From Cystobasidiomycetes sp. EMM_F5 (Eukaryota): a stretch of DNA of 64,000 bases. Numbering within the stretch: position 1 is the first letter of the stretch; each line of letters opens with the position of its first letter. Both the position numbers and the translations under genes were made by a program. Shown piece after piece: positions 4,792-62,197 of this stretch. The stretch spans positions 558,001 to 622,000 of the forward strand of contig JBPGPT010000004.1 of NCBI GenBank assembly GCA_051047955.1. Reading direction: 5' to 3'. The notes beneath the pieces are model-generated. The model saw only the letters and a program-made list of their open reading frames with translations, searched no databases and was not told where the DNA came from.

Positions 4792-6935
4792 ATGGCTAAA
4801 GCACCAAAGGTCAAGTCCAACCCGGCTGCCGCTCAGGCGAATGCAAAACCGACGGCCGCAAAGAAGGACACCAAGCCAGCAAAAGCGGCAGAGCCAAAGG
4901 CAGCTGCTAAAGGCAAGGATAGCAAGAAGGATGTAAAGGCTGCAGCAGTACCAGCAAAGGCTGCTCCTGCTAAGCCCACCAACGGCAAATCTGCAAAACC
5001 TGCAGAATCTTCAGATTCCGACGATTCTGACGAAGACTCTTCGGACGAAGACGAGCAAGCACAGCCAGAGGAGAAGAGCAAAGCTGCCTCTGTAAAGTCC
5101 GCCGCTGCCGCTGCGCTTCCTGGCAAAAAAGCTGCAGAATCTTCATCAGAAGACGACAGCAGTGACGAGGATGATTCTGACAGCGACGATGATGCAGAGG
5201 TGAGCTCTACTGATCTACAACCCATGTCATATCGACTTTGGCTTAAACATCTCTTTCTCAGATCAAGCCAGTCGCAGCTCCTGCAGGCAAAGCCGCAAAG
5301 AATGCTGTCGACAACACCAAGACTGTCGCTGCTAGTACGACTCAAGCAGCAAAGAAAGCTGTAATCGACGCCGCTACTACCGTCAAAAAGGGCGCAGCCG
5401 GTGCCGTGAATGCTGCCGCAAAGAAAGTGGAAGCTGCAACGGAAGAGGCAGATTCTGACGACGACGACGATGACTCTTCAGAAGGAACTTCTGATGATGA
5501 CTCCGATGCTGCCCCTGCGCCTGCCGTAAAGGCTGCAGCTGCCAATGTGCAGAAGAAGGGTGCTGAGGCGAAGAAGGCCGTCACCGATGTCGCTCAGACT
5601 GCCGCTGCCAAAGGTGCAAAGGCTGTCAATGGCGCAAAGCAGCAAGTGGCTGCTGCTGCAAAGGATGCTGTTGCCGAGTCGTCGGATGACGACGACGACG
5701 ACGACTCCTCTGATGAAGATGACGAGGAGGAGGCGCCAAAGGTTGGTAAAACCCGCATTCGATCATACTTTACATTCTCTAACATCGCCGTCTTCACACA
5801 GGCGGGGACCAAGCGAACTGCTGAAGATGCAGAGAGCAGCGATGATTCGTCTGATGACGATGACGATGACGACGAGGACGAGACGTCTGCACCTGTCGCA
5901 AAGAAGGGCAAAGATGCAGCTCCTCCTGCCAAGAAGGTAAAGACCGAAGCTGCTGCAGCTGATGGTGCAGCAGACTCCGGCGCGAGCAAGACTGTTTATG
6001 TGGGCGGTCTGTCATGGGGCGTTGACGACGCAGCTCTCCAAGAGTACTTTGCAGAGTACGGCGACGTCGTGTCTGCTCGTGTCATTACTGACCGAGAGAG
6101 CGGCAAGAGCAAAGGGTTCGGCTATGTCGAGTTCGCCGAGGATGGCATTGCACAAAAGGCGGTTGACGGATCACACGGAACGGAGTGGGAGGGCCGAACA
6201 TTGAAGGTTGACATTTCACACCCGAGACCTGCGCGAGAGCCAGGATTCGGAAAGGAGGCAGACCGAAGTGGGCGAAGCACGCCAGTCAAAAAATACAACG
6301 AGGAGCTGGGTCCTCCGACGACTACGGTGTTCGTCGGCAATCTGCCGTTCGAGACGGATGAGGATGCCGTGTGGGAAGCATTCAACGAGCACGGCAAAGT
6401 GTCCAACGTTCGGCTGCCAAAACATCCCGATACCGAGCAGCTCAAGGGCTTTGGATATGTGCAATTCAACTCTGTTGAGGAAGCGCAAAAGGCTATTGAT
6501 GCTGGCCGTGGCCAGGACGGTATTTGGTTGGGCAACCGCCAAGTTCGCGTTGACTTTGGTCAAGAACGAACAGGAGGCGGAGGCGGAGGCGAAAGTCGAG
6601 GAGGCTTTGGCGGTGGCCGGGGCGGCGGTCGTGGTGGAGGCCGAGGAGGCTTCGGAGGTGACCGTGGCGGACGAGGCGGTTTCGGCGGTGATCGCGGTGG
6701 TCGAGGCGGCCGTGGAGGCGGTCGAGGCGGCTTTGGCGACCGCGGAGGCCGTGGCGGAGATCGAGGTGGTCGAGGTGGAGGACGAGGTCAGTCTTTTCAT
6801 CAGTGTATCAGCGGTATCCAGCTGTTTTTTGCTAACGTCGAAATCTTTCTAGGAGGTCGTGGTCGTGATGCTGGATGGGCTGCCCGAACCGGTGCTGCCG
6901 TACCAGGTGCTGGCAAGAAGATGACCTTTGACTGA
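4792..6935 (+). CDS. NSR1: Nucleolin-like protein (Nsr1/Gar2): acidic-Ser tracts, two RRMs, RGG tail
   Basis: RRM1 has VYVGGLSW...KSKGFGYVEF and RRM2 has VFVGNLPF...KGFGYVQF. A long RGG/GAR domain follows and the protein ends GKKMTFD. Confidence 0.93.
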
Positions 6936-25872: not shown

Positions 25873-26813
25873 GTGCAAATCGTAATGTCCTTCGACACGA
25901 CTCCCGCCTTGCGCACACTGATGGTCTACAGCCCTCGTCTATACCAATGATCAGTCACTTCAGTGTCAGCCACCTGATGTTCACAGCCTCCCAGTGCAAT
26001 CAGCCCAGTCCGAGGTTGTTTCAAGCACTGAAGCATTCTTCATTTTGTGTTTATGCCAGACATAAAGTCAATCCTAGGCGAATAACAACGCAATGGTGTC
26101 TTGTCTAGGAATTCTGTGAGGATTTTATGCACTTTTTTTTGGTGTCTGTCGTATAAGAATGTTGCTCCATACCAAAGAAACCAAAGAGTCGTAAGGTCCC
26201 TACCGCACAGACCCAATGTATATATCTGTAAAGACTCCAAGCGGACGTCGTATAGGGCGTCGCTAAGCATAAGAGAAGGCCCGGTGGGGGGAGTGGCGAG
26301 TGAAAGGTGAAAAAAAAGTCTACTGCAATGCTACACTAAATTTGAAAACCGCAACGGAGCGCAATGGAGCTGTGTTTGTCGCAAGCGTCTGCTCTTGAAC
26401 AAACGATGTTCGACTGAGTTCGCGGGAGAGGATTATGTATGCTACACGGGTCCAACCTGGTTCGAAGACAATTGATGTGGATAGTGAGTCGCCAGAAGAA
26501 AGGAAAGTAAAGCAGACACGCTGCCTCGTGTTCGATCCAATGGCCAAAAGAGTTGAGAGTTTTTGCGGAGAGGAGAGGGGCGCCCGAGAGAAGTAAAAGG
26601 GGAATGAATGGAGAGCAAGATCAATGGGAGACGCATTACCCAACCCCGCAGCACTTGCAAGGGTGGGAATGCGTATAAATACATGTATCATGTATGTTGA
26701 TGCCAAACAATGAAGAGCCGCCAGTAGTGCCATGTAGCGTATCAAGCGGCCAAGAAAGATTTGCCGTACGTCCAGCGCAAGCAGCAAGATGATGCACATG
26801 CTGAGCGCTTCCG

Positions 26814-28223
26814 TCAGGCCATGGTGGACCGATTGTTGTTTCCTTGCGCAGAAGACGCAAACTGTCCGCCTTCCAGAATACCGACATAGGGCGAGTCGAT
26901 ACTCTTTGCGTACTTGTCTGACCCTTCGTAAAAGACGTAGAGCCACTCGCATGCTTCTGTAATCTCTGCTCTGAGCTGCTGAACGAGAGCGTGGGCCGCT
27001 TGGAGACGAGCTGCACCCGCTTCATCCATGTTGGCGTACGTCTGCCGGCTAGAGGCTACATCTAGCGAAGTGCGATGGAGACCTGGACGAGATGGTCGTC
27101 GCGCAACGTTATTGATGGCCAATGAGGGCGATAGCTGCTGTACCGCTGGCACCTTGGGAGCTGATACAGAAGAGCCCATCGTCTGCTCAATCAGGGACGG
27201 AGACGGTGTAGACGCATCGCTGATAGGAGGAGAAACAGAGTTTGACAGAACAGCAGGTGGACTAAACAAGCTTGACGGGGTCGACGAAGACGAGGACGAC
27301 GATGACGAAGAATGTGAAGCAATGCTCGAGTCCGAGACGAAGTTTGCAAGTGCGCTGACGCTGTCCAATGCTGGCCGCTGTGGGAGACCAGTGAGCGAAG
27401 GTGTAGGCTTTGGTGCATCATAACGATGATAGTCTGGCGAAAACGAGAAGCGGTACGATGCCAGCGAGTTACTGAACTGCAGCTTGTGCAGAGCATGGCA
27501 TGTCGCTGCAACCTTGACGAGACCCAGACTGCCCGACGATCCTTTGAGGTATTGTGCCTTGTTGGCTGCAACTTCAGTGTCTCGATTACCTAGGGCAGAC
27601 TCAATCTCTGCGACCGTTACTTCGGCCTGTTCGCACCACGCCCAGACGAGTGCTTTAGAGAATTCGCGAGATGGATCGCCATCGTCCAGAGCTAGAATCT
27701 GATCGTAGGCGTCCATGTCGACGATACCCGTGGCAAATTCGGGAAGCTTGGCTTCGAAAGGCGCTGCCGCACGTCTAGTGTCTGCTCCGCTTGGAAAGTA
27801 GGGATTTACCATGGAAGGTAGGGTAAAGGACAGCGACGCCGATTTCAGTAGTGGAGCGCTTGGTGGCGCAGACGACTGAGCATTTCTGCTGACGCTACTG
27901 CTGCCAGAAAAGGCATTGGGAGTCGTCGGTGCCGAGCACGACGACGATACCACGGGGTCTGCAAAAGTTACCTTGGAAATGGTAAACTGACGTTCTTCAA
28001 AAGCCTTTGCAAGCTGGTCTTCTAGACCAGGCGAATTGCCATTACTCGATGATGAGTTACCGTTGCTTGAGGAATTGCCGCTGTTGGAAGAGTAGGACTG
28101 TGAGTACGAGCTCGACCTGCGCGAGCCACCCGCTGCTGATCCAGACCCATTCTGCCAAGCGGCGATTGAGGATTTGAGGGATGGCTGCTTTTCCGACGAG
28201 AGTTGCAAGTGTCTGAATGGCAT
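26814..28223 (-). CDS. Ypd1-like histidine phosphotransfer (HPt) domain protein lacking the canonical His (pseudo-HPt candidate)
   Basis: Single 469-aa ORF. It contains GIVDMDAYDQILALDD...EFSKALV...EQAE...AQYLKGSSGSLGL.KV...C and a terminal helix ALVQQLRAEITEACEWLYVFY. The GHFLKGSS motif is replaced by AQYLKGSS. Confidence 0.88.
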   Translation of the reverse strand: MPFRHLQLSSEKQPSLKSSIAAWQNGSGSAAGGSRRSSSYSQSYSSNSGNSSSNGNSSSSNGNSPGLEDQLAKAFEERQFTISKVTFADPVVSSSCSAPTTPNAFSGSSSVSRNAQSSAPPSAPLLKSASLSFTLPSMVNPYFPSGADTRRAAAPFEAKLPEFATGIVDMDAYDQILALDDGDPSREFSKALVWAWCEQAEVTVAEIESALGNRDTEVAANKAQYLKGSSGSLGLVKVAATCHALHKLQFSNSLASYRFSFSPDYHRYDAPKPTPSLTGLPQRPALDSVSALANFVSDSSIASHSSSSSSSSSSTPSSLFSPPAVLSNSVSPPISDASTPSPSLIEQTMGSSVSAPKVPAVQQLSPSLAINNVARRPSRPGLHRTSLDVASSRQTYANMDEAGAARLQAAHALVQQLRAEITEACEWLYVFYEGSDKYAKSIDSPYVGILEGGQFASSAQGNNNRSTMA

Positions 28224-29774
28224 AACAGGATGATACGTGTGTCACTACGGTGTAAGTATGTGTTTGTGATATTTGATAGGGCACCCCTCTCCGTATTGGC
28301 TTGAGGGATTATGTAAGCAGGGTAAAGAAGTTGCCGCGAATCTGGCTCAAAACTGTATAGTTTAGAGTGCGACGCGTCAAAGTCGGCTGTATCACGATTT
28401 GGGGGTTTCGAGACCAAAGAGGTGCAGATTTTGACGGTGAGGAAGCGATGTTTGTGTTTGGAGAGGTGTAGTATGAGATTCAAACAGGACAGTACTTCAA
28501 GATGTGAGGGTTATTTGACTCTTGGGAAGTTTCAGGGGGCGCTGTGGGCATTAGCATCGTAGGCACAGGAGGGGGTGGAAGAGTATCGGAAGAGTGGTTG
28601 GATGATTAGAAGCACTGCAATCAGCATACTCCATTCAAACACTGCTACATGTCCAATCTCGGAGACTCACTAGCCGTGTGGGACGCCAGGTAGAAACCTG
28701 CAAGAGGGAGTAACCCTGTCTGTCTTGAAGTTGGACTGTCTGTAGACTGCGAGCTGCGGTGCTTGAAGCTGCCCGCTCGCTAGTGACTAGCTAGCTGCTG
28801 CCGTTTGGATGTCGATGGTTGCTTGGATCCTGATCTATGTCCACGTTGCCCTTGGACAACGGGAAACTCGGAGCGGAAAGCGGGTGCTGCTGGCTACTCG
28901 AGCAGCGACGTCGAGTATGCGTGCGGAGTGACTGGCAGTTGATGGTGAGCCAGGTATCACAGAGTTGGTCGTATTCTCACCCTGACTACTGCCCTTGCTG
29001 CCCAACTCTGTCCTTTGGGCGGCTGCTCGATTGCCCTCTCGATTTCTCGATGGTCGTCGAGTTTGCGAATCGAGACTAGCGTGATTATAAATCTTGGGAT
29101 GGGCAGTTGTAATAGACGCAATACAAGCATTACAAGCATTGCAAGAATTGATTAGTAAGTATTGTAATGATTAGAAATGGCTACTAATGAACTGCATTCA
29201 CCCATTACAACCAACACCCAGCACATCGACACATCCATACCTCCTACACTCCCACACTCAGACACTCCCACCCTGCCAATGTCACTCGGTGCGTCCCATG
29301 AAACTCGCTGACCCCAGTCCCAGTCGTGCTTGGTCACCTGGACAATGGGCGCAGTGCTGACTAATCAGGCACGCCTGGAGGATGGACAGTTCTGCCTGAA
29401 AGACGCCGCAGTGAATGTGGGGTGTAAGAAATGATACAAGGAACGTGTGTCTTGTACAGCAGCCACGGTGTACAATACATCAAGTGAATGCCCTGTCTTC
29501 AAATAATAGTCACAACACTGTCTCACTCTGCGACGACAACCCTTCAAATTGCTTCGACTCCGCCTAAGACACGCACGCACTCACTCACTCACTATACTGC
29601 GACACTCTCGCTTGCATGACAGATGGACTGCATGATAATGCACTACTCCTCATCTCTGCGACTGACTTGACGCACACCTCACGCATTCATGGCCGGCGAG
29701 TGCGTGACCGTGTAGTTTACTCTGCAAGCCACACATCAGCACTTTTACCACTCCCATATCCACACTGCCATCAC

Positions 29775-32700
29775 TCACAACCTCCTCGACGTAACGACCT
29801 TTGGAATCATCGACAGCAGATCCGGCTTTCGCAACGGCTTGGTCAGGTACTCGTCCATCCCAATCGCAATGCACTTTTCACGGTCACCCAGCATCGCGTG
29901 CGCAGTGAGGGCAATGATGGGCACTCGCTCAAGATTGTTGTCCTCCTCGTACCGTCGGATGATGCTCGTCGCTTCGATGCCACCCATGACTGGCATTGAC
30001 AGATCCATGAGGCACTTTGATATCAAATTATACGTCAGCCTGACTGCCTTCTACCTGCGCACTCTGTCACGACCCACAAGATGATAGTGATGCTTCTTGA
30101 TAGCCTCAACAGCCAGTGCTCCATTCTCCACAACACTGACGCGATGTCCAGCAGACTCCAAGAACTTTAGCGCAACCTTTTGATTGACGACATTATCCTC
30201 CGCCAACAAGATCTTGTATGTATATTCGCCATTCAGATCCCTCGAATTGCGATTCGACGTCTCGAGTGCAGGAGTGATGGCATTCGCCACGTCCTGTGCG
30301 TCCGTGGGAACTTCGATGCAATTGGCAATCCCATAGTCGAGCGCATACTTGAGGTTGAGCTGGTCAATGTACGTGCAGATGAGTACTAGTGGGATGTATC
30401 GCAACCGCTCAATCTCGCGCAGTTGCTCGACCAGAGCCAGCTGGTCGACTACGACCGTATCAAAGATGCCCTGCTGCTCGCAAGCCTCTTCGATGGACCG
30501 GACGTGCACCACCTGCAGCCCGCACTCTTGGATAGAGCTCACCAAGCCTTTCGTATCGCTGTCTGCGTAAATCAAGAGGATTCTTCGTCCAGGGTGGGCA
30601 AACGTCATCTTTGTCCGAACTTGATCCAACGACCACGGTCCCTTTCTCGCCCGAGTTGTAAAGTAGAATTGCGATCCCTGGCCGTATTCGCTCGACACCC
30701 ACAATTCACCGCCCATCAGATTGACGAGCCGCTTCGAAATCGTCAACCCTAGACCCGTACCACCGTACTTTCGAGTCGTCGACCCATCCGCTTGCGCAAA
30801 CGTATCAAAGATAATGTCCAGCTTATCCGCCCTGATACCGATACCCGTATCGGCAACGCAAAATTCGAGGAGACGGTTGCCCTCAGAGTCGGGTTTTGAC
30901 AAGCGGCACGACAGTGCAACATGGCCAGACGTTGTAAATTTGACGGCGTTACCCACTAGATTTGTAATGACTTGGCGGAGGCGGAAGGGATCTCCGACGA
31001 CAAAGTCTGGAATCTCTGGATCGATGCGGTATAGCAAGTCTAGCTTGTTTTGCGAAGCCTTGACGGCCAGCGTCTTTAGCACGCCAAATACTGCTGATCG
31101 AACAGAGTACGGAATCTCTTCCATTGTCATTCGTCCCGCTTCAATCTTTGAAATATCCAAAATGTCATCGATAATCAAGAGGAGTGAATTGGCAAGTTGA
31201 GAGACAATCATCAAGTTTTCCCTCTGTGCTCTCGAAAGTTCCGTCTCGAGAGTGACGCCAGTCATACCAATAATGCCATTCATCGGAGTCCTGATCTCAT
31301 GAGACATGTTTGCCAAGAATTCAGATTTGCTTCGGTTTGCCAATTCGGCCGCTTCCCTTGCGGCCGTATTCTTCTGCAATCCATCCCGGAGCGACCCGAC
31401 CATCTGATTGATCTTATTCTTGAGCGTGTCCATCTCTCCAGACGCGTCGACAGTGACGAGCGAACTAAAGTCGCCCTCTGTGGCAGCGGCTGAAATCTGC
31501 GCAAAAGCTCGGACCTGGTTGGTAAGATTCAACGCCATGGTGTTTACATTCGACGTAATCTCTTGCCATGTTCCATCGATATTGTCCACTTTGGCAGTAA
31601 CGCCCAGATTGCCCTTTGTGCCGACTTCGTGTGCGACATTGGTCACTTCTGCAGCAAAGATCGACAGACGGTCAATCATATCGTTGATGGTCTTGCAGAG
31701 CGCAGCAATTTCGCCGGCGGCTTCAATGTCCACTTTTACGCTAAGATCGCCGTTTGCGACCGCAGTGGTAGCAGTAGCGATGCCGCGCACTTGAGCGGTA
31801 ATCTGGCAAATGGTACGTCAGTCGCATTCCCTTCCAGTATGAAGGAGTCGTGACCTACTCGGCGTGACATAGTGTTTACATTATCCGTCAAGTTTCTCCA
31901 CTCGCCAGAGACGGAAACGACCTGAGCCTGACCACCGAGTACGCCATCTGTGCCAACTTCTCTTGCTACACGCGTCACCTCTCCGGAAAACATGCGCAGC
32001 GAGTCCACCATGGAATTGACAGTAAGCTTGAGCTCGAGAATCTCTCCTCGTGCATCGACCTCAATCTTTCGGGTGAGATCGCCTTCGGCGACTGCCTTTG
32101 TCACATTTGCAATGGATCGTACTTGATCAGTCAGATTTTGAGCCTGTATCAAGAAAGGTAGTCAGATCTGAAGCAAGCCAACACTTAAAACGTCTCATTT
32201 ACCATTTGATTGACATTATCCGTCAGTGTCTTCCAGGTACCACGAACGCTGTTCAATCAACGCATTTCAGCACCACTTCGTCTGTATTCTACCACCTTCA
32301 GCATCACCCACTTTTCAACACGCGCCGAACCTCCCAATCTTCCTTCAGTACCGACTTCGAGTGCCACTCTTGTGACTTCGGATCCAAAGGTACGCAACTG
32401 CTTCACCATGCCATTGACTGTTCCTTTGAGCGCTAGAATCTCGCCTTTGGCATCGACATCAATCGTCCTGGATAGATCGCCCGCTGCAACTGCTTCGGTG
32501 ACTGTCGCGATAGCCCGTACTTGGTCTGTGAGATTGGAAGCCATATTGTTGACGCAGTCTGTAATCTCGCGCCATGTGCCTTCAACGTTCTCAACGCGCG
32601 CTGAACCGCCAAGTCGTCCTTCTGTACCGACTTCAGTCGACACGCGGATGACTTCCATGGCGAAATTGTTGAGTTGGTCCACCTGACGAAAGGCAACCAG

Positions 32701-34088
32701 GTCAGTATGTGCGTGCGTAATTTACAATTAGTATATGAAAGGTCAAATGAGCGCACCATGACATTTATCGTCGTCTTGAGTTCTGCCACTTCACCGTCTG
32801 CTTCGACTGCAATCTTTTTACTCAAGTCTCCTTTGGCTACTGCTTTCGTAACTTCGGCAATGGACTATTAACAAAGCGACGAAATACACTGTCAGCCACG
32901 AGTTCAAGCAAGTCAAAATGAAGGACGACCCACCCTGACTTGGGTCGTCAGATTCTCTGCGAGCTTATTGACTGTCGTCGTCAATTCCTGCCACGTCCCC
33001 TCTACGCCCTCGACTACAGCCTGTCCTCCCAATTTACCATACGTACCCACATCAAGCGACACGCGCGTAACTTCATTCGCAAACGTAATGAGCTTCTCCA
33101 CCATTCCGTTTATATCCTCTTTGAGCTCGTGCAGATCGGCTCCCTGTACCTTGACTTCTACCTTTTGCGACAAGTCACCGCGTGCTACTGCCTTGCATAC
33201 CCTTGCGAAATCTTGTACTTGGGCTTTGAGCAGCTTCAATTCCTTTTCGGCAGACAGTTGCTCCCCGTCGGCAGTCCCCATCTGGGGCGACAGAATGCCA
33301 CTGCTGCTGCTCGGCTCGCTGCTTGCGCCTACATGACTGACGTTGCTGCTACTGACTATCCTGTCTGCATTGATACTGCCGATACTGCTGTCGCTGGATT
33401 GGTTTGTGAAGGGTGGAGGAGATGTTTGGGAAGACGAAGCGAAACTAGCTGCCAATCTGGCAATGTCTTCGGATGGGAGGATGGGGGAAGAATACGAGTG
33501 CACAGCACTCGTCACTGAACGAGAATCGACAGCCCGTGTCGTCTGAAAGTGAAGAAGAGGTGAGTTTGGTGTGAGTGGCGTGGTAGACGTCTCTTCGGCA
33601 AGTGCCAGCCGCTGTGCAATTCGAGCAATACTAGCCAGTACTGCTTGGCTGTCTGTAGTGCATGACCCAGTCTTGCTCGAAATGTCAAGCCTAGATTGCT
33701 TCAAAGACTGCGTAAAGTGCGTAGGGTCCGCTTCGAGTGCCGAGAGGAGTGCGACGAGGTCCGCCGCAACGACGGGCGATGAGCTGAGGCCAGACTCCTT
33801 CGAGTGAGCCTCCTGCTGAGTGTACCGCTCAGTCGCAGTCATGGCCAGAATGCCGGGAGAGCGGGCGTCTGACACTGCCGTTCCTGGAGTGTACGGCGAC
33901 GACGACGACGAGAAGGAGGGAGTGCGGAGTGGGCCGTACTCTTCGCTGAGGCTGCTGCTGCTCACACCGCTGCCAGTACTGAAACTCCCACTGCTGATAC
34001 TGCTGTACGGTACTCTGGCAAGCAGCGGTCGCCGGAGTGTCGCTGTCGCTGATGGATTGGGGATATCGGTGTCGGATGGTGCTGCCAT
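29775..34088 (-). CDS. NIK1: Group III hybrid histidine kinase (Nik1/Os-1/Tco1 type)
   Basis: Five HAMP repeats of about 92 aa plus a final HAMP. H-box [19 protein letters not shown]-box [10 protein letters not shown]1/G2 DTGIGI / GGTGLGL, a degenerate first receiver, and a terminal receiver LLAEDN...[11 protein letters not shown]...KP. Confidence 0.95.
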
Positions 34089-34491: not shown

Positions 34492-37400
34492 TCACTTCCG
34501 GAAATGGTACGACGGGAGGCGGGAACGGCGAGCAGAGATTGGACTGCGAGCCATAACGGGGGTGGGTGAGGGGTGGTGCTGCATTGCGGGAACAGCGTCG
34601 TCGTACGAGATGGCCAGTCCGACAGCAGCAGTGGAGAGTGGCGGTGGAGGAGCGTCCACCCTGTCCTCCTCTCGATGACCCACGTCTCCCGTGATCGTCA
34701 TCCTCGACTGCTCGTCCAGCATGTCCCGCTTGACTTTGGCGACCCTGTCCGACCAGAACTGTCGCACCTCGTCATGCATGAGTCGGTGGTCTGATAGTGA
34801 CCTCGCTCCAGATAGAGTAGCAGCAGTGACAGGTCGACCAGAACTCCTCATACTGCTACTCTTACTCTCCTCCCGCCATCTTCGCTGCTCCTCCACAATC
34901 ACAGAAGGTGATCGAGGACGTCCTATCCGAATAGGAGCGGTGCGAGTATTGGTAGCAGTGTTCAACCTCGACAACGAAGGTTTGTTGGAGAGGATGCCAT
35001 TACCACGCATCATGGGCTGTGACGTGGCAGCAGAGTAAAGGGACGGCTGCAATGTGACAGAGTGAAAGGACGGCTGCGACTTAGCAGAGTGAAAGGATGG
35101 CTGCGGCGTAGCAGAGTGAAAGGAAGGCTGCGACGTGACAGAGTGAAAGGAAGGCTGCGACGTCGCAACTGCCGTTTCCAGACTCTGCGTGCGCGCAAGC
35201 CTTGCGGCCGTCATACAGGAGGTCTGGAAGGCACTGATGATCTTCCCCCGATCCTTCTTTCGAGCGCTAGGTGTACTGCCCAATTGTGGTGAAGGACCAG
35301 CAGACGAAGATGAAGGTTCCGGAACAGTCAAAAAGATACTAGTTCGCATAGCGGCTGACCAGTTGCTCTTCTTGCGCGAATGAGCACTCCCATACTCGCT
35401 TGAAATGTGCATCATCTCGTCGTCCTCAGTGGATTTCGCCGATGTGAAATCGTGCTCGTCCGACCATATTGGCAGTAAATCAACTTGCATCAGACTAGGA
35501 TGATGCTGCGCTTTTCCTCGTAAATCATGCACGCCTGCTACTCTGGCGACGCCCCAATCTTCTTGTACTCTGTACCGCGTCCCACGATCAGGTATCGTTT
35601 GGACATCATCTCGCAGATCCGCTTTGGAAGGCCGTAAACGAAGAGAAGGACCTTCGCTGTGTCGTGTAGCAAATACGACAAGATCAGAGAAGATGAACAC
35701 AAAGATGGGCGTTTCTTTACATTTGACCGCCCGGGAAGTTTTGCCGAGATATGGAGAGCTCATCTTACCACCCTCTGACCCTGTCTGAGGCACTAATGGC
35801 GAGCCGATATGTGAAGTGGTAGTGCGCTGGCGCGTATCTGCCCATGCCGATTGCGGAGAAGCAAATTGCGATTGTGTAGGCGAAGCAAGACTCTGCCCGC
35901 TATGCGAGTAGAGTGAGTCGGGTCGTAGGTGAGAATGCTGAGATTCAGCGTACATCAGAGGTGACGCAGCTCGAGAAGGTTGAGTAGGTCTTTGAAAGTC
36001 GTAGTCTGTGAAAGCAGACATTGCCGCAGAGCTCATCTCGGACATTGTCGACGGTGGCCGAGGTGAGACTCCCCATGCACCACTGTCACCAGCTGGAGAG
36101 TGACCATCGATAAGGAAAGGTGACGGACTTCCATCTACGCCGTCCAGCGAAAAGGCTGGAGAAGCCAGTGGCACGCTCGATAGATTCGGTGGCGCCACAG
36201 AGGGTCCGTGCGACTTTAATAGCGTAAACGAGCCAGTCAGCTCGTCAATGCCAAGGTAGTGTCGTTCTTTGTCGCCTAGATGGACTCTTCGCAGCATACC
36301 GCTCGCCAACAATTGTCGATCTCGTTTAGGTAGGGTCATATTCGTTGGGAGTCCAACAATCTTGTGCGAGAATGATTTGATGTGCAGATATTCCTCCTCT
36401 CGTGCTTTTACCTCCTGCATTGTCCGAATGATGGAGTCCGTTGCTTGAAACAGCAGTACGGTAGCTTCATAGTCTAGATGAGGAGCAGGAGTGAGATCGC
36501 AAAGTTGCTGAGCAGGGGGAGCGTATCAGCGTCAGCCTCATAAATAAGATCGAACGTTACACACCTTGAAGAAGAGCGAATACTTCATGAGACGTTGAAC
36601 AGGTTTGAGAAGAAAGCTCGACAAAGTCATTGCTCCGCACTCCGGCAGCATCTGCTGCATCCGCACAAATTCTCCAAACTCATGCGTCGCATCCGCAATC
36701 ATAGCTTCTATTTCGTGGTTCACATGCTCGAAGCTGACCAGATAGGGCTGATATATCTCGAGGCGAGGGATGAATAGCAGGAACGCTTCTGCTATGCGCC
36801 AGACAATCGGGATCTGCGAGTCTCTGCACTCCTGCAAGGCAGAGGCAATGTGTGTATGAAGTACGATGATGTCGTCCAGCCAGTCCAGTAGATCAGACAC
36901 CTGTCGCGGTATGCCCGCGATCCACTGCCCGTTTGGCATTCGCAATGGGGTCGAGAATACCTTGACGACACCTCGAAGACCATTCACAAATGCTTGCTCG
37001 GTTTGAATCAACTCCCATATCACCTCTTGTCGGCGTAACTCTGCAGTGGTGTGCGTGTCCTCCAGCCGGTTAGTCAGTGAATTAGATAGAGTCGATCTCC
37101 ATGTGTGCGTGGCCAGCGCAGGCGAAGGAACGGGCGAAGCAATCCGTACAGACTTTGCATTAGGATCGCCAGTACTGATGCGCGAGCGGGGCGCCGAGTA
37201 ATGAGTAGACAGTCGGGATGGTCCAGTCATTGACCTCTGTCTCTTGATCTCCACCGGAGCCATAGATGCGTTCTGACGTTTGATGTTAGCCTGCCCTGAA
37301 TCTGAAGCAGAAGCATCTTGCTGAAGAGCGGTTTGGACAGCTTCCGGTCCGCCAAAAATGCTGGGTAAGCGAGTTCTTCGCTTCGGATTTTGGCAGCTCT

Positions 37401-39418
37401 GGCTTCCATAATACCCGAAGGAAGTAGAGATGCTGCTCGCTAGTCGACCGAGATAGTAGCTTGATCTACTGCGAGAGTGCCCAAGGTGTCCGCGATCTGT
37501 AGAGGCAGAAGTCCCCTCAACCGAGATGGCGGTTGCGACTGGCTCGCTGTGAAGTGGAGTAGATGAAGGTACAAACTTGCGATTGTGGCCTGAAGTACCG
37601 GCTGCGATAGAATGTGATTGACCATTATGCGTATCCTGATTTACTCCCGAGCTCTGGCTTCGTACAGAGGCAGGTATCGACGGCTGAACAGATTGCACAG
37701 CGGCTGCAATTACAGGCGCTATATCCTGTGAATTTAGCTTAAAGTGCTCAGGGACTGGCGGAGTCTCTGCAACAGAGTCCGGATTATTTCCAGCAGGCTT
37801 GAGATGCGCCGCCTGAGAAACAGCAGCTATCGATGCAGCATCGACAGAAATAGCGCGGCCTGCTTCGGTGACCAATCGATCTACGCGCGAGCTTCGCGAG
37901 CGTCCTGATTGTGTGCTATAGACAGATCCTATCGACTCATCGAACTTGTCCGGCGGAGAGACAGTCTCGGTCGGCCGGATCTCCGCAGACATACGAAAGG
38001 GGTCCAGCGCTAGAATGCCCGCTAAAACAGACTCTGACATGCCCAGACTTGCACGAGGATCCGATGTGCGCCTGCCTGACTGTTTTTCGGAGGTAGTCAC
38101 AGAAGCGACATCAGGTGGGGCAGGAGTCACTACCGTAGACTGCTGCCGTGAGCGGCGATTGCTTGCTGATGTACGTGAGGATGAGTGACTGGACCTTCGA
38201 GATCTGCGAGATGATTTGCTTCTCCTTCTATCGTCTTCTAACTGATTGCTGCCATTCTGAGCTGAAACGCCCGCGGAGTGAGCTTCTAATTGCGACGCAA
38301 GATCGCGTCTAGTGGTGAGCAGAGTCACCGTGCCAGATCGAACTTGATTCTCATCCTCGGTATCGGGGTATCCGATACCCCATTCGTCGATCTCGGTTTC
38401 CAGACTATGTTTGACAGCTGCTTTCGTTTCCACTGCCGGAGCCTTCTTGACGTCGTGAGGAGGCGGTTTCTGGGCATTCACTCCATGCTTGTGCAAGTGC
38501 CCAATCTCCGTCGTGCTGGATACTGGCTCTATGCCTAGTCCTTTGAGGAGACTCGTGAAACGACGGTCACGTTGATAAGCTTCGGATGCATCGTCTTCGG
38601 CTGTCTGGTAACTGCCAAGGTCTAAGTCTGGCAAGACGTACGAATATTCTTGAGTGACCGGAGATGACGCTGCGGATTTTGCTGCTTCTGACGGACGACT
38701 CGGTGAACTCGCGCTCCCTAATTTATGCGGTGAGATCCTTTTGAAGTACGATGACATCCTCGGTGACCTGGAGCCTTCTGTAAGTGAGGTGCCTGCTGTC
38801 GCGGTGAGTGTAGTTGAAGCGGAATGCGGCGCTATACAGACTTCTGTCTGCGTTTGCGATGCTGCAGCATACGATTGAACAGGTTCCAGCGGCTCGAGCA
38901 ATGTCGCCTTGCCTGTTCGCGCAAGAAAGGCTTCGAAGCGCGGATCTCTTTGCCTGCGCGGCGGCCGTACAGGGGGTACATCGGCGTTGGTAACTGGATT
39001 AGATGCATTTGTTGATCCTAGAGAAGACTTTGAGGCAGGGTGGTTCTGAGCTACGTGAAGTCCTACAGCGTGTAATACTGGTCTTGTAGCACGAGGCGGA
39101 CGTGCCGGGGGTGCAGTGACGGACTTCGAAGGAAGAGCTTGTTCTGAGCTGGCAGTGCGCTGAGTGCAGACGCCCTCGACGGAAGGCGATTTGGGCAAGT
39201 GATACTCCTTCAGCTTGTGAAGAATGGTTCAGCATGTAGACTGTGACACGGCACTGTGTATATTCTGTACTGACCTTTGCTCCATGCTTTCTGAGCCGTG
39301 AAGGAGCCGGTGAGGCATTCTGCCCGACATTGGGCGAAGTCGCGATACCATAAAGATCATCTCGAACACATCGAGTACCTTCGTAGAACTTTGTCGGCGG
39401 GCTGCGGGGTCGCTGCAT
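34492..39418 (-). CDS. Dbl-homology (RhoGEF) protein with a PH-like region and long disordered N-terminus
   Basis: DH motifs RRQEVIWELIQTEQAFVNGL and LSSFLLKPVQRLMKYSLFF; PH-like PIFVFIFSDLVVFA. The start is inferred from an upstream exon. Confidence 0.85.
35015..35166 (-). repeat. Coding 27-bp minisatellite (about 5 copies, xxSQPSFHS) in the RhoGEF C-terminus
   Basis: cagagtgaaaggaaggctgcgacgtga-like units; the protein reads ATSQPSFHSVTSQPSFHSATPQPSFHSAKSQPSFHSVTLQPSLYS. Confidence 0.9.
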
Positions 39419-50404: not shown

Positions 50405-52219
50405 TCAGATCATCTTCTTACCTCTGAATCCACTGCCATCTCTATTTCTCCACCATTTCCTGCCGGCCAGCCCAGCAATGCCAGTCAGGCCGATGCCGCC
50501 TACCAGGAGCACTATTTTGCCGGCACTGCTCGCAAACCCGCTAAATACAGACGTCGTGCTTGCAATCTTTCGTCTTTCGTCTGCTTGCGTGTTAATCAGT
50601 TGCACCAAGTCGGCCAGGCGGGTACTCAGCGAAACGAGGTGTGATGTAAGTCGAGAATTGTGGTTATCCATTCGGATAGCAAGTCCTTTAACGTCTGCAA
50701 GCGTCTGCTGCAGTGTCGTCACGAGATATGATATTGAAGCTTGTTCGAGCTCTTCGGCACTTCGGTCTGCAGCTCCTCCCGCTAGCGAACTGAGCTGTCG
50801 TTGTATGTTTTCCAGCTGAGAGTTGAAGCTAGCATCACGTGCTACATTTGATGCTTCGCTGTTGCCGCCTTGTTGGGATGAAACGTGGCTGGCACTTGAC
50901 ATAGTCTCAACGCGACGCGTCAGAGCATCGATAGCTTCGGTCATCCGATTTTGCGAAATCATCACTTCGGCGAGCATGCTCATGGGGTCGACTGGCGTGA
51001 CGATACTATCTGTACCTGCCAGAGGCTCAGTCTCGCCATGGCTCCGGAAGACGGGAGGGGGAGCTTGATTCGGAGCAGCTTTCTTGTCTGCCCTTCCAGT
51101 CACTTCCCATGCGTCGAATGCATAGACATCAATAGAGTCTGGTTCAGTGTTTCCACCAGCCAATGCTGTCAAGCCAAAGTGGTAGCCGGCCGGTAGCTGG
51201 ATATCCTTGACTGTCAAACAATGATGCGAATAATGCCTCTTTTCCTGCGAAAGTGTCGTATGGGGCTGTAGATCTAGATCTACCCTGATCTCCTTGTTGA
51301 AATTGCTTATTCTTGCCCACACTATACCCGGTGCATTACGAAACGCTGCTTCACACTCTCCAGCTGCTCGCTCGATATATTTGGCCTCTTGCGCGCTATC
51401 GCGCTTTTGACCAGTCTTGAAGTCGTCGAAGAGCGCTGAACCAGCTGATCCATCGTCCATGAGCGCCGATATGACGCCAGATGTGTGCGCTCCGAAGGGC
51501 CAACCGGCTGGCTGTGACCGTGGCAGAACCGGAGCCGTAGGCGAAGCATCGAAAATGATACCCAGTCCATCAAACTTTGTTGATTGGCCAAAGAACGAGA
51601 CTGAAGCGTCAGACACTTCGTTAAAGGCAGTTTCATGGGATCTGCCAAGCATCGGTGAACCGGCCTTGTATCCAACGTAGGTAAACGCGTCAAAATCAGC
51701 TTTTCGGAACTTGCATCACACGCGAATGAACACATACCTTTGTGTACCAGAATGCCAGCCCTCGACCGCCTTGTCCGCTGCCCGCACGACCTGCGCCGTG
51801 CATTCGCAATGCAATCTCGACAATCCATTCGTTGTTTCGGATTCCGCTCGTTGAAAAGATTGACCCGTGTGCTACGGGTTCCGGAGGTGAGAGTCGCAAG
51901 AAGTCGGGGCTTGTTGCTATCCGTGTCCTACCATCGGCCAATCCAAATGCACGTCCATCAGAAATGACGATAAATCCACAAAACTACGCGCTCACGCTTG
52001 ACCCGCGACGTCAAAGCCCGATATATGGAGGTCACTTTCGAAAGGTCCACGGAAGCTCAGTTCTGGCAGAGGTCGCAAAGGCGGGAGGATCATCGGAGGG
52101 ACGTCTTCGAACTGCTTGTCGGAAGACTGGGCGCCGCAGGAAGCTGGCAGCGATAATGCAACTGCGGCAGCCATTGCGACGAGCCTCTGAGGCGACCATG
52201 GTGGGCTACGTCGCCGCAT
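50405..52219 (-). CDS. L-type lectin cargo receptor (Emp47/ERGIC-53/VIP36-like)
   Basis: Signal peptide, GGRGLAFWYTK, FDGLGIIFD, LPAGYHFGLTA, coiled coil, TM segment and KKxx tail (GKKMI). Confidence 0.88.
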
Positions 52220-52310: not shown

Positions 52311-53634
52311 ATGCCGCTGAATCTGCCTCCGCCCAAGGCAGCGAGCACGAACGGTGCACACAATGTCGGAGATGCCCAGTCTCAATCGCGGCAGTCCCCG
52401 TCAACTGCGTCAGTATCGAATCCAGCTCGAAACACTTCAGAATCAACAAACGAACCAGTGCTTCCAATTCCGAAGAGCAAGAGCAAGCAAGCGTCCACAC
52501 AGCCAAAGAAGTTCTTTCTAGACCTGCCAAAGCCCGCTTCATCGGGGCAAAACAGCGGAAACATTGACCAACAGCCAGAGGGTCAGCCAACGGCCAAGAA
52601 GGCAAGGCTCGGAGGCAGTGGGCTAGGCGCTTTGCTGCCAGAGCCAAAGCGTGCATCTGGACTTGCCCTACCACCGCCGTCGAGTGCGGGCACGGCGAAT
52701 GGGTCGAAAACAGCTTTGAGTGCCGCTTCTCTATCGACTCTGCTTAAGCCTCATGCGGTCAGCAACGCAAAGCAAACACGGAAGGAAGGCATCTCAGCGG
52801 AGAATGTAGAAACAGAAGGGCAGCCGAGTGAGACAGCAGCGTCGACCAATGCCGTACCTCGGGATGAGCCAAGCGAGGAAGTGTTGGACTTCTTTGGCCT
52901 ATGTACGTACTACACGCAAGCTCCAGCATGTCTGTACTGACTGTGCGGATTCAGCTTCCAACAGCGCCTCAGCAACGCCAACGGTAGACTTCTTTGGCAT
53001 TACTTCTGAAGCGACTCCGCAAGCGAGTTCAGTCGTAAAAGTTCAGAACGATCAGCCTCAGAAAACGTTAATTCAATATACTGCATCATCTCTCTCGACC
53101 TCTGCTCCTCGAATCTCGGCCGCCCCGACAACCGCAGCTCCCTCTCTAGAATCAAACTACTATGCCACGTTACCCGTTCCTACAAAGAACGATCCATATC
53201 CTGGATTTTACCAGAAACCAGACGGCTCGTGGGCAGCAAAGCGACCGGACGAGTGGGAGATCTGGTCACAAGCGCAGATGGCGGCACAGCTTCAACAACA
53301 GGCTGATGCCGAGCCAGCTCAACCCGAATTACCATCAGATTTTGAGCAAGCTGGAATGGCAAACAGTGTCGATGTACGAGCCGAACTGCTCAGAGGTAAA
53401 GGACAAGCGGGTCTCACTCGGCCTGGCAAGGTTCCTCAGGATGCAAACAAGGCCGTTGACGAGGATGATCCGGCAAAGCAGAAAGCGCAAAAGAAATTCT
53501 CGCACGTCGCAAAATCTCGCCATCAACTCAGTACACTTATTGCAGACGCTACCAACAACCGTGCAGAACTCGAGGATCGTATAGCCCAGATGAAGACTAA
53601 CAAGCGCTCCGGAGGGGCAAAGTATGGATTCTGA
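52311..53634 (+). CDS. PRCC-like (MAD2B-interacting) protein
   Basis: C-terminal KSRHQLSTLI...RAELEDRIAQMKTNKRSGGAKYGF; N-terminal LGALLPEPK. Confidence 0.85.
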
Positions 53635-59579: not shown

Positions 59580-62197
59580 TCATATTGTTGTCGCATCGTC
59601 AACAGCTTGCTCGCGTTGCTTGCCTTTACCCTTATCTTGCATGTCCTCTGCTGTATGCCCGATTTCGTCCCCATTTGGCTGTTTATTATGCTTCAAGCCT
59701 AATTCTGCTGCGACTTCAGCTGCCGCTTGAATCTGATCCGGATCAAGCAGTGACATCGCTGTCTGTAGCTGCCTGATGGAGGTTGACAGGGTGTCCCGCG
59801 TTGACTGCAACAATTTCAAGCGAGCGCGAATGCCATCGGTGGTTGCCTGACCGATAATGGATAGCTGTTCCTCAGTGAGACTCTCTGGAAAAGACTGCTC
59901 CGCGCCATTAGCAAAGGGTACCGGCGATTCTTGCTGACTTAGCGCCGACAATGTTTCCTTGTAATCGCTTGATTGCAATAGCGTCGGAAACAAGCGGGCC
60001 ATCGAAGAAGGCTGGGTTGGGTTGACCGGGTCGAATAACGGTATAAGGCGAGGCATAGCACTTGATTGCGGACGCAACATAGGGGGCACGAAGCGTGATT
60101 GTGGATACGTGGATCCCATCACGCCTGGGCTTGTCGCCGGCTGCCACTGTAGAGTTGGAAGGGGTGTAGGCGAAGAGACGGCGATCTGTGGCACCGGTAT
60201 CGCTGTAGAGGTTGGCGGGACATGAGCTGACCTATTTGAGGACGGAGATGATGGCGCATCTATACGTATTGAGGGAGTTTGAGGTGGCGTATCAGGTTTT
60301 TGCGCCGAGACCGTCGTACTCGACGAATCTGTCGTAGTGTTCACTTTCGCTTGCGGCGATGCGGTTGCTTGCCTAGCTCGAGCTGCTGCTTCCAGAAAGG
60401 CTCTCCGTTTCGCTCTCTCGTCCGAAGGTGTGGATTCTGTCGTGCTGTTGTGCTGCGCCGACGTAGTTGTGGCTACTATTGCACTCGATGCCGCAGTCTC
60501 AGCTTTCTTGCTCGAGTCAGGCGACGATTGAAGGACGCTGCTGGTTGTTGGTGTCAATATCGGCTGTACCGTCGTGCTTGGCTTAGCAGGACTCGCGAAG
60601 GCGACCAAGGGATTCTCTGCTCCTGCTCGCCTTCGTGAAGGCGTATCGTTCGGGCGAGCTGTGGCGGTCGCAGGTGCCGCTTGTCCAGGCACGGCAAGAT
60701 GGGTCGGGCGCGGGACAGCTCCCGGTTGTGGCGGTGCAGCGGCTCCCGGTTGAGCTTGGGCGGGCGGTTGCGGTATTGGTGGTCGTCCTCTGTTGGCCGT
60801 GCTTGACGTTGAGGGCGTGAGGACAGGTCTCCGGCTGCATTGAATGCATACGTCAGGGAATAAGAAAGAGCGTAGCGAAGTACTACGTACCACGTCGGAC
60901 AGCTTTGCTGTCGTTCGAGCCAGCTCCGTAAACAGTGGAAATGGAAGATATGCCCGCATGGTAACTTCTTTGGCGTATCATTCGGACCCTGTCGTCCAGG
61001 TGCTGCCGCTACAGCTGCAGGAGCTGGTTGAGGATTTTCTGGAGCTTGTGCAGGCTGAGCCGGAGCTACTGCGGGAGTCGCCTGCCTTGCCTCCATATCC
61101 TCTCTGCAGATTATGCACGTCTTGTCGGACATGCGCTCCATCTCCTCTGCTGTAGCGTTTGGATATCTCTGATCCATATTTCTCGTAGCCTGCCTGTACC
61201 TCGCGAGGTCTCTTACTTTGATGACAAAGCTCCTGGCAGTAATGTAGACATCCCGGAGGATATTGAGTGGAAGGCCGTAAAAAGTGAGAATCAGACTAAA
61301 GAAGCCAAGGTACGTTGCGAGTTTCACAAAGTCGCAAGCCAAGTCGATGTAGAATATCCACACCGACTTGTTATCCCACGGTACCTCGCTTCGCAAGTCG
61401 TAGCAGTTTACGCCAAACTTTGCGTACGTTGCGACCAGAGTAGCGAGGAGAATCATGTACTCGCTCGCAAACATGATCATGACGCTCGGACCGTCGACGA
61501 GAATTGTCTGTGCAGCGTAGGCTACGAGGAGAAAGTCGATAGTCTGCAAGAGGCTGAGTAGGCTAAACATGCGTATGTAAAAGGAGCGGGGTATGCTGGG
61601 TGCTTGCTCCATCTAAATGGAAGGATCAGTGAGTAAACAACGTTATTGTGAAGAGGCGCAGTGTGCACACCATTTCTACCCTGTCTGCGGCCAGCCAGTG
61701 GAACACTTTGAGAAACAGCAGACTGACAAAGAGTACGACGAAAGAAGTATCGAACTCTTCGCGGAATATAGTGAGGGCCAGGAGACTCTCCGTGACTGCG
61801 TACCATGCTCGTTCATGGAGTCTCTGCGGGATCAGACCGTCAGCGCCAGGAGTGAACTTGTTCAATGAAGCCCGTGCGTACCTCGACTTCGAGCAGCCGA
61901 AGCGGCCCAAAGAAGATACTTTGCAGAGCTCTTCCGAATAGGACGGTGAGGAATACGCCCATGTTCCAGAGGATCTGCATAAGCCCGGAATGATAAAGAG
62001 ACTACGTGGTCAGCGTTCACAACAACTAACCAAACCAATAAAGCCGCCCCGTCTTCTGGACTGACCATCATGCAGGCATTGCTCTTGGAGAGGTATACCG
62101 CTGCCGCAAAGAAGTTTGAGCGCTGCCGGAAAGCGCTGAATACGACGTAGCCTGCCAGGACGCACGACACACCGCCGTAGGCAGCGAGGCGGACCAT
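59580..62197 (-). CDS. HRD1: ERAD E3 ubiquitin ligase Hrd1/synoviolin
   Basis: NFFAAAVYLSKSN, ERAWYAVTESLLALTIFR, LKVFHWLAADRVE and RING-H2 CIICRE...KKLPCGHIFHFHCLRSWLERQQSCPT. Confidence 0.95.

Follow-up and report, generated by a model that had tools for sequence, protein, structure and literature searches.

Introduction

What does a fungal Ypd1-like protein do once its phospho-accepting histidine has been replaced? The question is raised by a gene at 26814..28223 (minus strand) of a 64-kb window, i.e., the whole stretch of DNA analysed, from Cystobasidiomycetes sp. EMM_F5. The product of the gene, here P0001, resembles a histidine-containing phosphotransfer (HPt) protein but carries a glutamine, Gln224, at the place of the acceptor His64 of yeast Ypd1. 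In the usual scheme of fungal two-component signalling, many hybrid kinases feed a single invariant Ypd1, and hence Ypd1 is discussed as an antifungal target. The source organism is a basidiomycete yeast from a leaf surface.

The answer that we tentatively favour is that P0001 is a receiver-binding pseudo-HPt that would modulate or buffer a His-Asp relay, whether or not the genome also encodes a canonical Ypd1. The fold, the glutamine itself, its inheritance, a new histidine on the facing helix and an adjoining kinase bear on that answer, and are taken in turn.

A Ypd1-Type Helix Bundle

The gene is a single stop-free open reading frame (ORF) of 469 amino acids. Pfam Hpt (PF01627) matches residues 193–249 at 29.5 bits, above the cut-off of 24.6 (E 9e-7). 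Searches of the PDB with phmmer align P0001 with the HPt of Chaetomium thermophilum (8pbw/8rqj; E 1.4e-11 to 2.6e-11), placing the P0001 segment kaqylkgssgslg over ghflkgssatlg, and with yeast Ypd1 chains (E 3.5e-7). An AlphaFold2 (AF2) model, built from a 52-row alignment of the Ypd1 family, has predicted local distance difference test (pLDDT) scores above 90 at about residues 165–250 and 400–440, and low confidence at residues 1–160 and 255–395. When this model was compared with the PDB by Foldseek, the top matches were the C. thermophilum HPt and Ypd1, with root-mean-square deviations of 1.1–2.0 Å over 84–89 columns; the model and these matches have the four-helix bundle with the active site on helix αC. 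A search of the ESM Atlas returned generic Hpt clusters only. As modelled, P0001 is a Ypd1-type bundle that is extended at the N-terminus by a disordered region rich in Ser and interrupted, between αD and the closing helix, by an insert of some 145 residues that is likewise Ser-rich.

P0001 thus shares with S. cerevisiae Ypd1 (PDB 1c02, 1qsp, 2r25) and the C. thermophilum HPt the Hpt domain and helix bundle, the docking helix αA, the Lys(+3)/Gly(+4)/Ser-Ser motif, a Cys on αD and the closing helix EWL..(F/Y)Y. It differs from Ypd1 in having Gln for the acceptor His, His for Gln86, and Phe for R90, the last by residue offset and not by tool alignment. Also unlike Ypd1 are the insert and the N-terminal extension, the latter of about 160 residues.

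The Glutamine at the Acceptor Position

Gln224 sits in AANKAQYLKGSSGSLG. That is, where an HPt has a solvent-exposed, phospho-accepting His on αC, P0001 has Gln. The surrounding signature is kept: by alignment, the equivalents of Ypd1 K67, G68, S69, S70 and C82 are K227, G228, S229, S230 and C242, so that Lys and Gly stand at the H+3 and H+4 positions. The preliminary description of this DNA had read a natural His-to-Gln change from codon CAA at 27554-27552 in an otherwise intact HPt signature. Motif, codon and coordinates agree with the window DNA and the PDB alignment, and the terminal helix (residues 397–443) is present in the AF2 model, its pLDDT exceeding 90 at about 400–440. H64Q is the standard non-phosphorylatable Ypd1 mutant; no paper on H64Q Ypd1 was found in the literature searched.

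Could the Gln be an assembly or sequencing error, or the mark of a decaying pseudogene? The EMM_F5 genome was assembled with SPAdes from 2x151 Illumina reads at 142x cover (PMC12697161). In addition, four other public runs, X1 to X4, carry contigs with parts of the gene, which were compared over window positions 26600-28500. A contig from X3, an independent run of 2022, covers 27317-27600 with two differences, of which one is listed, at 27423, and none is listed at codon 224; its depth is low (2.7), and the support that it gives is modest. Among the 15 coding-sequence differences listed in the environmental contigs, the more distant of which are listed in part only, 12 fall at third codon positions and are synonymous (binomial p 2.9e-4). 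Finally, the same Gln, in KAQYLKGSS, is found in the relatives P0003 and P0155 (from Logan; 45–50% overall identity to P0001). An assembly error is unlikely because of the 142x cover, the X3 contig over the codon, the mostly synonymous differences, and the Gln in a relative with 68% core identity.

Several environmental and host-associated runs, from different studies, hold contigs at least 99% identical to the gene as well as contigs of relatives. A loose end of a contig in X2 translates as the LAVEEMDSA stretch of the Gln-bearing P0003.

The bundle has been kept while the linkers drifted: P0001 and P0155 are identical at 60 of 88 core positions (68%) and 22 of 41 last-helix positions, against 33 of 105 for the insert and 37 of 105 for the N-terminus. 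The docking helix αA of P0001 (IVDMDAYDQILALDD) is close to the canonical IIDMDxFxQLLEMD, and αA and K227, G228, S229, S230 and C242 are intact in both proteins. Judged by these comparisons, the gene is real and selectively maintained. Purifying selection, which the preliminary description had named as a check, is suggested by the core-to-insert difference between P0001 and P0155 and, in the listed contigs, by the synonymous changes. A third relative, P0015 (see below), has a long branch and a more degenerate appearance. This appearance counts in favour of error or decay; against that explanation stand the open frame of 469 codons, the read cover, the independent contig, the Gln of P0155, the well-conserved core and the synonymous differences, and this explanation is largely refuted and can be given very little credence.

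A Divergent Subfamily and a Single Loss of the Histidine

Word-indexed and exhaustive protein searches place P0001 and its closest relatives, which derive from Logan, JGI and ENA assemblies, in a Ypd1 subfamily of their own. It can be recognised by REFSKALVWAWC(D/E)QAE, KA(H/Q)YLKGSSASLGL, the Ser-rich insert, and a closing helix SEWLY.YY..SDKYA. The members P0003-P0016 and P0018 all have a Ser-rich insert, of 100–200 residues. The 52-row alignment was hand-picked, with 15 subfamily and 37 canonical sequences. At its H64 column, where Gln is rare, 46 rows have His, 3 Gln, 2 Lys and 1 Val, and among the best 150 representatives of the exhaustive search 8 lack His at this column, P0001 included. 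At position 250 (Ypd1 R90 by residue offset), 13 of the 15 subfamily members have Phe, whereas the alignment leaves a gap there in the canonical rows.

A careful maximum-likelihood tree was made from 40 rows and 170 columns; 13 of the rows belong to the subfamily and 27 are named canonical Ypd1 proteins, spanning chytrids to Dikarya. The tree omits P0003, which shares a 90% cluster with P0155; P0008, which is nearly identical to P0007; and two fragments, P0016 and P0018. The subfamily is a clade with 100/100 support, and the stems that set it off from all of the canonical Ypd1 proteins measure 1.44 and 1.67 changes per column; the very long branch of the whole subfamily is a further difference from Ypd1. 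Within it, P0001 (Gln), P0155 (Gln) and P0015 (Lys) form one clade (97/91). Among the 15 aligned subfamily rows, 12 keep the His, two have Gln (P0001 and P0155) and one has Lys (P0015). P0015 has a branch of 1.86, and its K67 equivalent is also changed, to Gln.

Because the three non-His members form one supported clade, the loss of His is best read as a single event that preceded the divergence of P0001, P0155 and P0015. The natural change proposed in the preliminary description is genuine in this wider sense too, the loss of His having been inherited by at least two further lineages. An HPt fold without the acceptor His, with the change kept in evolution, is one mark of an AHP6-like pseudo-HPt, and the Gln of P0155, the 97/91 clade and the conserved core all agree with it. 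By alignment and tree, P0001 is more than a canonical Ypd1 with one change: it is a member of a strongly divergent subfamily. The subfamily may represent either the Ypd1 orthologues of its lineage or paralogues. A scan of JGI metagenomes recovered five loci, all with His; none was found to share flanking genes with the window.

A New Histidine on Helix αD

When the three non-His members were compared with the 12 His-bearing members over 188 columns, the only fixed differences were at His246, Thr422 and Phe431. (One X1 contig has Tyr at codon 431, like the His-type members.) His246 occupies the position of Ypd1 Gln86, on αD. His is found there in 3/3 non-His members and 0/12 His-bearing members, the latter having 11 Tyr and 1 Phe. 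All 15 subfamily members therefore lack the Gln that is present in 35 of the 37 canonical rows. In Ypd1, Q86 lines, together with K67 and G68, the channel to the receiver Asp (PMC6341664), and it contacts and stabilises a sulfate bound at H64 (PMC11224324).

To see how the two positions pair more widely, 374 HPt domain rows were aligned to a core profile. The H64/Q86 pair is His/Gln in 312 rows, His/Tyr in 20, His/Glu in 13, and His/His in two (P0026 and P0028). A His fills the Q86 column in two of the six independent non-His lineages that are aligned there, versus 2 of 350 His-bearing rows (Fisher p 0.0014, in a test made after the pattern was seen and on rows that are phylogenetically non-independent). 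The two lineages are the P0001 clade and P0129, an unrelated short HPt-like protein with Tyr at the H64 column, His at the Q86 column and Asp at the G68 column. In the remaining four, the Q86 column reads Gln, Arg, Glu and Gln.

The pattern suggests an alternative to the pseudo-HPt: P0001 may be a working HPt in which the phosphorylatable His has moved from αC (residue 224) to the facing αD (His246), with Gln224 taking the role of Gln86 and the relay running from the adjoining kinase through His246. The fixation of His246 in the non-His members, at a column where every His-bearing subfamily member has Tyr or Phe, argues for such a move, as do the location of Q86 at the transfer channel and the H64-bound sulfate, the Tyr/His pairing in the unrelated P0129, and the retention of K227 and G228 beside an intact kinase. 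P0026 and P0028, which carry both His residues, could be intermediates. There are, however, several counts on the other side. The three subfamily members represent one evolutionary event; the Tyr-to-His change may compensate structurally for His-to-Gln; the residues of the other four non-His lineages do not follow the pattern; and the Asp of P0129 at the G68 column is expected to hinder transfer. Moreover, we know of no HPt with its acceptor on αD, which also counts against the proposal. On balance, a relocated acceptor is doubtful, though it is the main rival reading. Its most literal form, in which the acceptor hopped to the facing helix so that His64/Gln86 of Ypd1 are mirrored as Gln224/His246, and phosphate of the adjoining kinase would pass via His246, is a shade less probable still. 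If His246 were the acceptor, P0001 would be the first HPt with an acceptor on αD, a sign that an HPt active site can move between helices, and a natural case of residue migration in a phosphorelay.

The Adjoining Group III Kinase

A gene directly upstream of that for P0001, on the same strand and about 1.5 kb away, encodes a hybrid histidine kinase. Five of its ORF pieces match HAMP or HAMP_2 of Pfam, one match being below the per-stretch threshold, and there are matches to HisKA, HATPase_c and Response_reg as well. The H-box and the ATP-binding boxes (DTGIGI, GGTGLGL) align with the solved kinase 7z8n. The receiver is split by an intron, reading ILLAEDN ... ALTAH ... LTKPL, with the phospho-Asp, Thr and Lys all aligned. 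The best PDB match of its second exon is 8phn (E 1.6e-22), which, from its title and the PDB table of PMC11224324, is taken to be the receiver of a C. thermophilum hybrid kinase, probably of group III. The gene thus has the features of group III kinases of the Nik1/Os-1/Tco1 type, i.e., HAMP repeats, HisKA, HATPase_c, a receiver and the catalytic motifs. The C. thermophilum group III receiver phosphorylates its HPt within a minute, and an H105E HPt is not phosphorylated (PMC11224324).

For L004, a relative of the His type, an upstream stretch of 3.6 kb holds no kinase domain, and this comparison gives no sign that the pairing of kinase and HPt genes is conserved. To our knowledge, two-component genes in fungi are not usually clustered.

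The kinase bears on a further explanation, namely that P0001 is the only HPt of its lineage, has lost its His, and is relay-dead. The Ssk1-to-Hog1 branch would have been rewired for the unphosphorylated state, and the protein would be kept for a phosphorylation-independent task. In its favour, fungi often have only one HPt (PMC4709007), and neither the 64-kb window nor the indirect protein searches described below, which are unable to exclude one, yielded a second. Ypd1 loss is lethal in S. cerevisiae and C. neoformans via sustained Hog1 activation, but C. albicans adapts (PMC5300278). Yet the adjoining kinase keeps its H-box, ATP-binding boxes and receiver Asp, Thr and Lys, which is hard to explain if there has been no acceptor since before the P0001/P0155 split. 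The very long subfamily stem would also be unusual for a protein that serves all kinases and regulators. This explanation is improbable, and ranks below that of a moved acceptor.

Weighing the Pseudo-HPt Reading

In the pseudo-HPt reading, Gln224 would carry no phosphate at the canonical site. P0001 would dock onto receiver domains, for instance that of the adjoining group III kinase or those of Ssk1- and Skn7-type regulators, and, once docked, would modulate or buffer the His-Asp relay. This reading is favoured because it makes the fewest new assumptions and because plant AHP6 provides a precedent (PMC4709007). Ypd1 docks all of its receivers through αA, the start of αB and the end of αC, and substitutions at Ypd1 G68 abolish transfer with little effect on binding (PMC6341664).

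Several observations weigh against it. K227 and G228 are kept, and their Ypd1 equivalents matter for catalysis more than for binding (PMC6341664). The fixed His at the Q86 position in 3/3 non-His members would fit a relocated acceptor at least as well. Since the catalytic motifs of the adjoining kinase are all kept, the cell would still need a working acceptor; that is, the organism appears to keep at least one kinase that depends on one. From the long branch of P0015 and its lost K67 equivalent, part of the non-His clade may be decaying.

There is also the matter of a second HPt. A decoy in the AHP6 sense would need a second, His-bearing HPt in the genome. The 64-kb window holds no second HPt locus. 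A Wallemia Ypd1 query gave 108 matches from 174 candidates with no EMM_F5 protein among them, in a search that could easily miss one. A profile of 11 canonical Ypd1 sequences likewise gave no EMM_F5 protein in the best 120 of 1577 matches; the Ypd1 proteins of other Pucciniomycotina (Rhodotorula, Puccinia, Mixia) are also missing from these best 120, so that the result is no evidence of absence. Names looked up for 30 clusters gave no second EMM_F5 protein.

The suggestion of the preliminary description, that P0001 is a fungal phosphorelay inhibitor or decoy, thus stands in part. The gene is real, the Gln is genuine and conserved, and the core and docking helix are conserved; an acceptor relocated to αD had not been foreseen, and competes with the suggestion. 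Two background statements made with it agree with PMC4709007, in which fungi have "often only one" HPt and AHP6 is an HPt inhibitor without the His. Its view that such a protein was undescribed is consistent with the literature searched: open-access papers and preprints yielded plant pseudo-HPts only, and a fungal one may be described elsewhere.

Counterparts in Plants and in Other Fungi

Like the plant pseudo-HPts AHP6 and the rice PHPs, P0001 has an HPt fold in which the acceptor His is naturally replaced and the flanking motif is kept. The rice PHPs carry Gln at the acceptor position. Unlike the plant proteins, P0001 groups with fungal Ypd1 and matches plant AHP structures weakly (E 0.0013-0.014), which indicates an independent origin. 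For AHP6, relay inhibition and co-existence with canonical HPts are established; for P0001 both are putative. If the pseudo-HPt reading is correct, P0001 could be the first fungal counterpart of AHP6, i.e., a built-in relay brake.

Other Ypd1-like proteins without the His were encountered, as follows: P0139 of Candolleomyces eurysporus (Gln), P0073 of Diaporthe sp. PMI_573 (Val), P0141 and P0361 of Fusarium albosuccineum and F. decemcellulare (Lys), P0256 of Apophysomyces sp. BC1015 (Tyr), P0129 (Tyr) and P0114 (Lys). In contrast to P0001, these proteins are short and of canonical type, except for the subfamily-like P0114. They are single sequences with no evidence of inheritance, and only P0129 has the His on αD. 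Since they occur in Candolleomyces, Diaporthe, Fusarium and Apophysomyces, the phenomenon is, on this survey of sequences, broader than the P0001 gene, and lack of the His is no great rarity among Ypd1-like proteins. No description of any of them as a pseudo-HPt was found in the literature searched.

Features of the Window

The coordinates of the P0001 gene, its parts and the other annotated genes are collected in Table 1. The RRM, RhoGEF, lectin, PRCC and RING genes are not two-component signalling genes.

Table 1. Annotated features of the 64-kb EMM_F5 window.
Feature	Position	Strand	Basis
Ypd1-family HPt-like coding sequence (P0001), stop codon included	26814..28223	-	ORF; NCBI model
Ser/Asn-rich N-terminal region, residues 1-164, predicted disordered; carries KVTFADPVVS	27732..28223	-	AF2 model, alignment
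HPt core, residues 165-252; αA 170-180, αB 187-212, αC 216-232, αD 236-250	27468..27731	-	Pfam, PDB phmmer, AF2, Foldseek; pLDDT mostly >90
Codon 224, CAA, Gln at the phospho-accepting His position (Ypd1 H64)	27552..27554	-	PDB phmmer, family alignment
His codon 246 (CAC), equivalent to Ypd1 Gln86, helix αD	27486..27488	-	Family alignment
Ser-rich low-complexity insert between αD and last helix, residues 253-396, predicted disordered, poorly conserved	27036..27467	-	AF2, alignment
C-terminal helix, residues 397-443, equivalent of Ypd1 αG; family motif E.(C/S)EWLY.(F/Y)Y	26895..27035	-	AF2, alignment
Group III (HAMP-repeat) hybrid histidine kinase, several introns, start 34088 putative	29775..34088	-	Pfam, PDB alignments
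RRM protein	5247-6935	+	Pfam
RhoGEF protein	36538-39228	-	Pfam
Legume-like lectin, ERGIC-53 type	50405-51715	-	Pfam
PRCC-domain protein	52810-53634	+	Pfam
Synoviolin-like RING E3 ligase	60554-61612	-	Pfam

NCBI lists a "Phosphorelay intermediate protein" of 467 amino acids from the same organism, P0002, which is 100% identical to P0001 from residue 4 on. The sole difference is in the first residues, MEHLQL in the NCBI protein and MPFRHLQL in the continuous ORF, and points to a small 5′ exon in the NCBI model. On the minus strand of window positions 28200-28260, a splice acceptor, ttcag, lies within codons 3-4 and is compatible with a tiny upstream exon.

The N-terminal region has one stretch common to P0001 and P0155 within its disordered sequence: KVTFADPVVS (window 27939-27974, minus strand; residues 84-95; SPKVTFADPVVSGSS). 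This stretch is a candidate for a linear motif peculiar to the Gln lineage.

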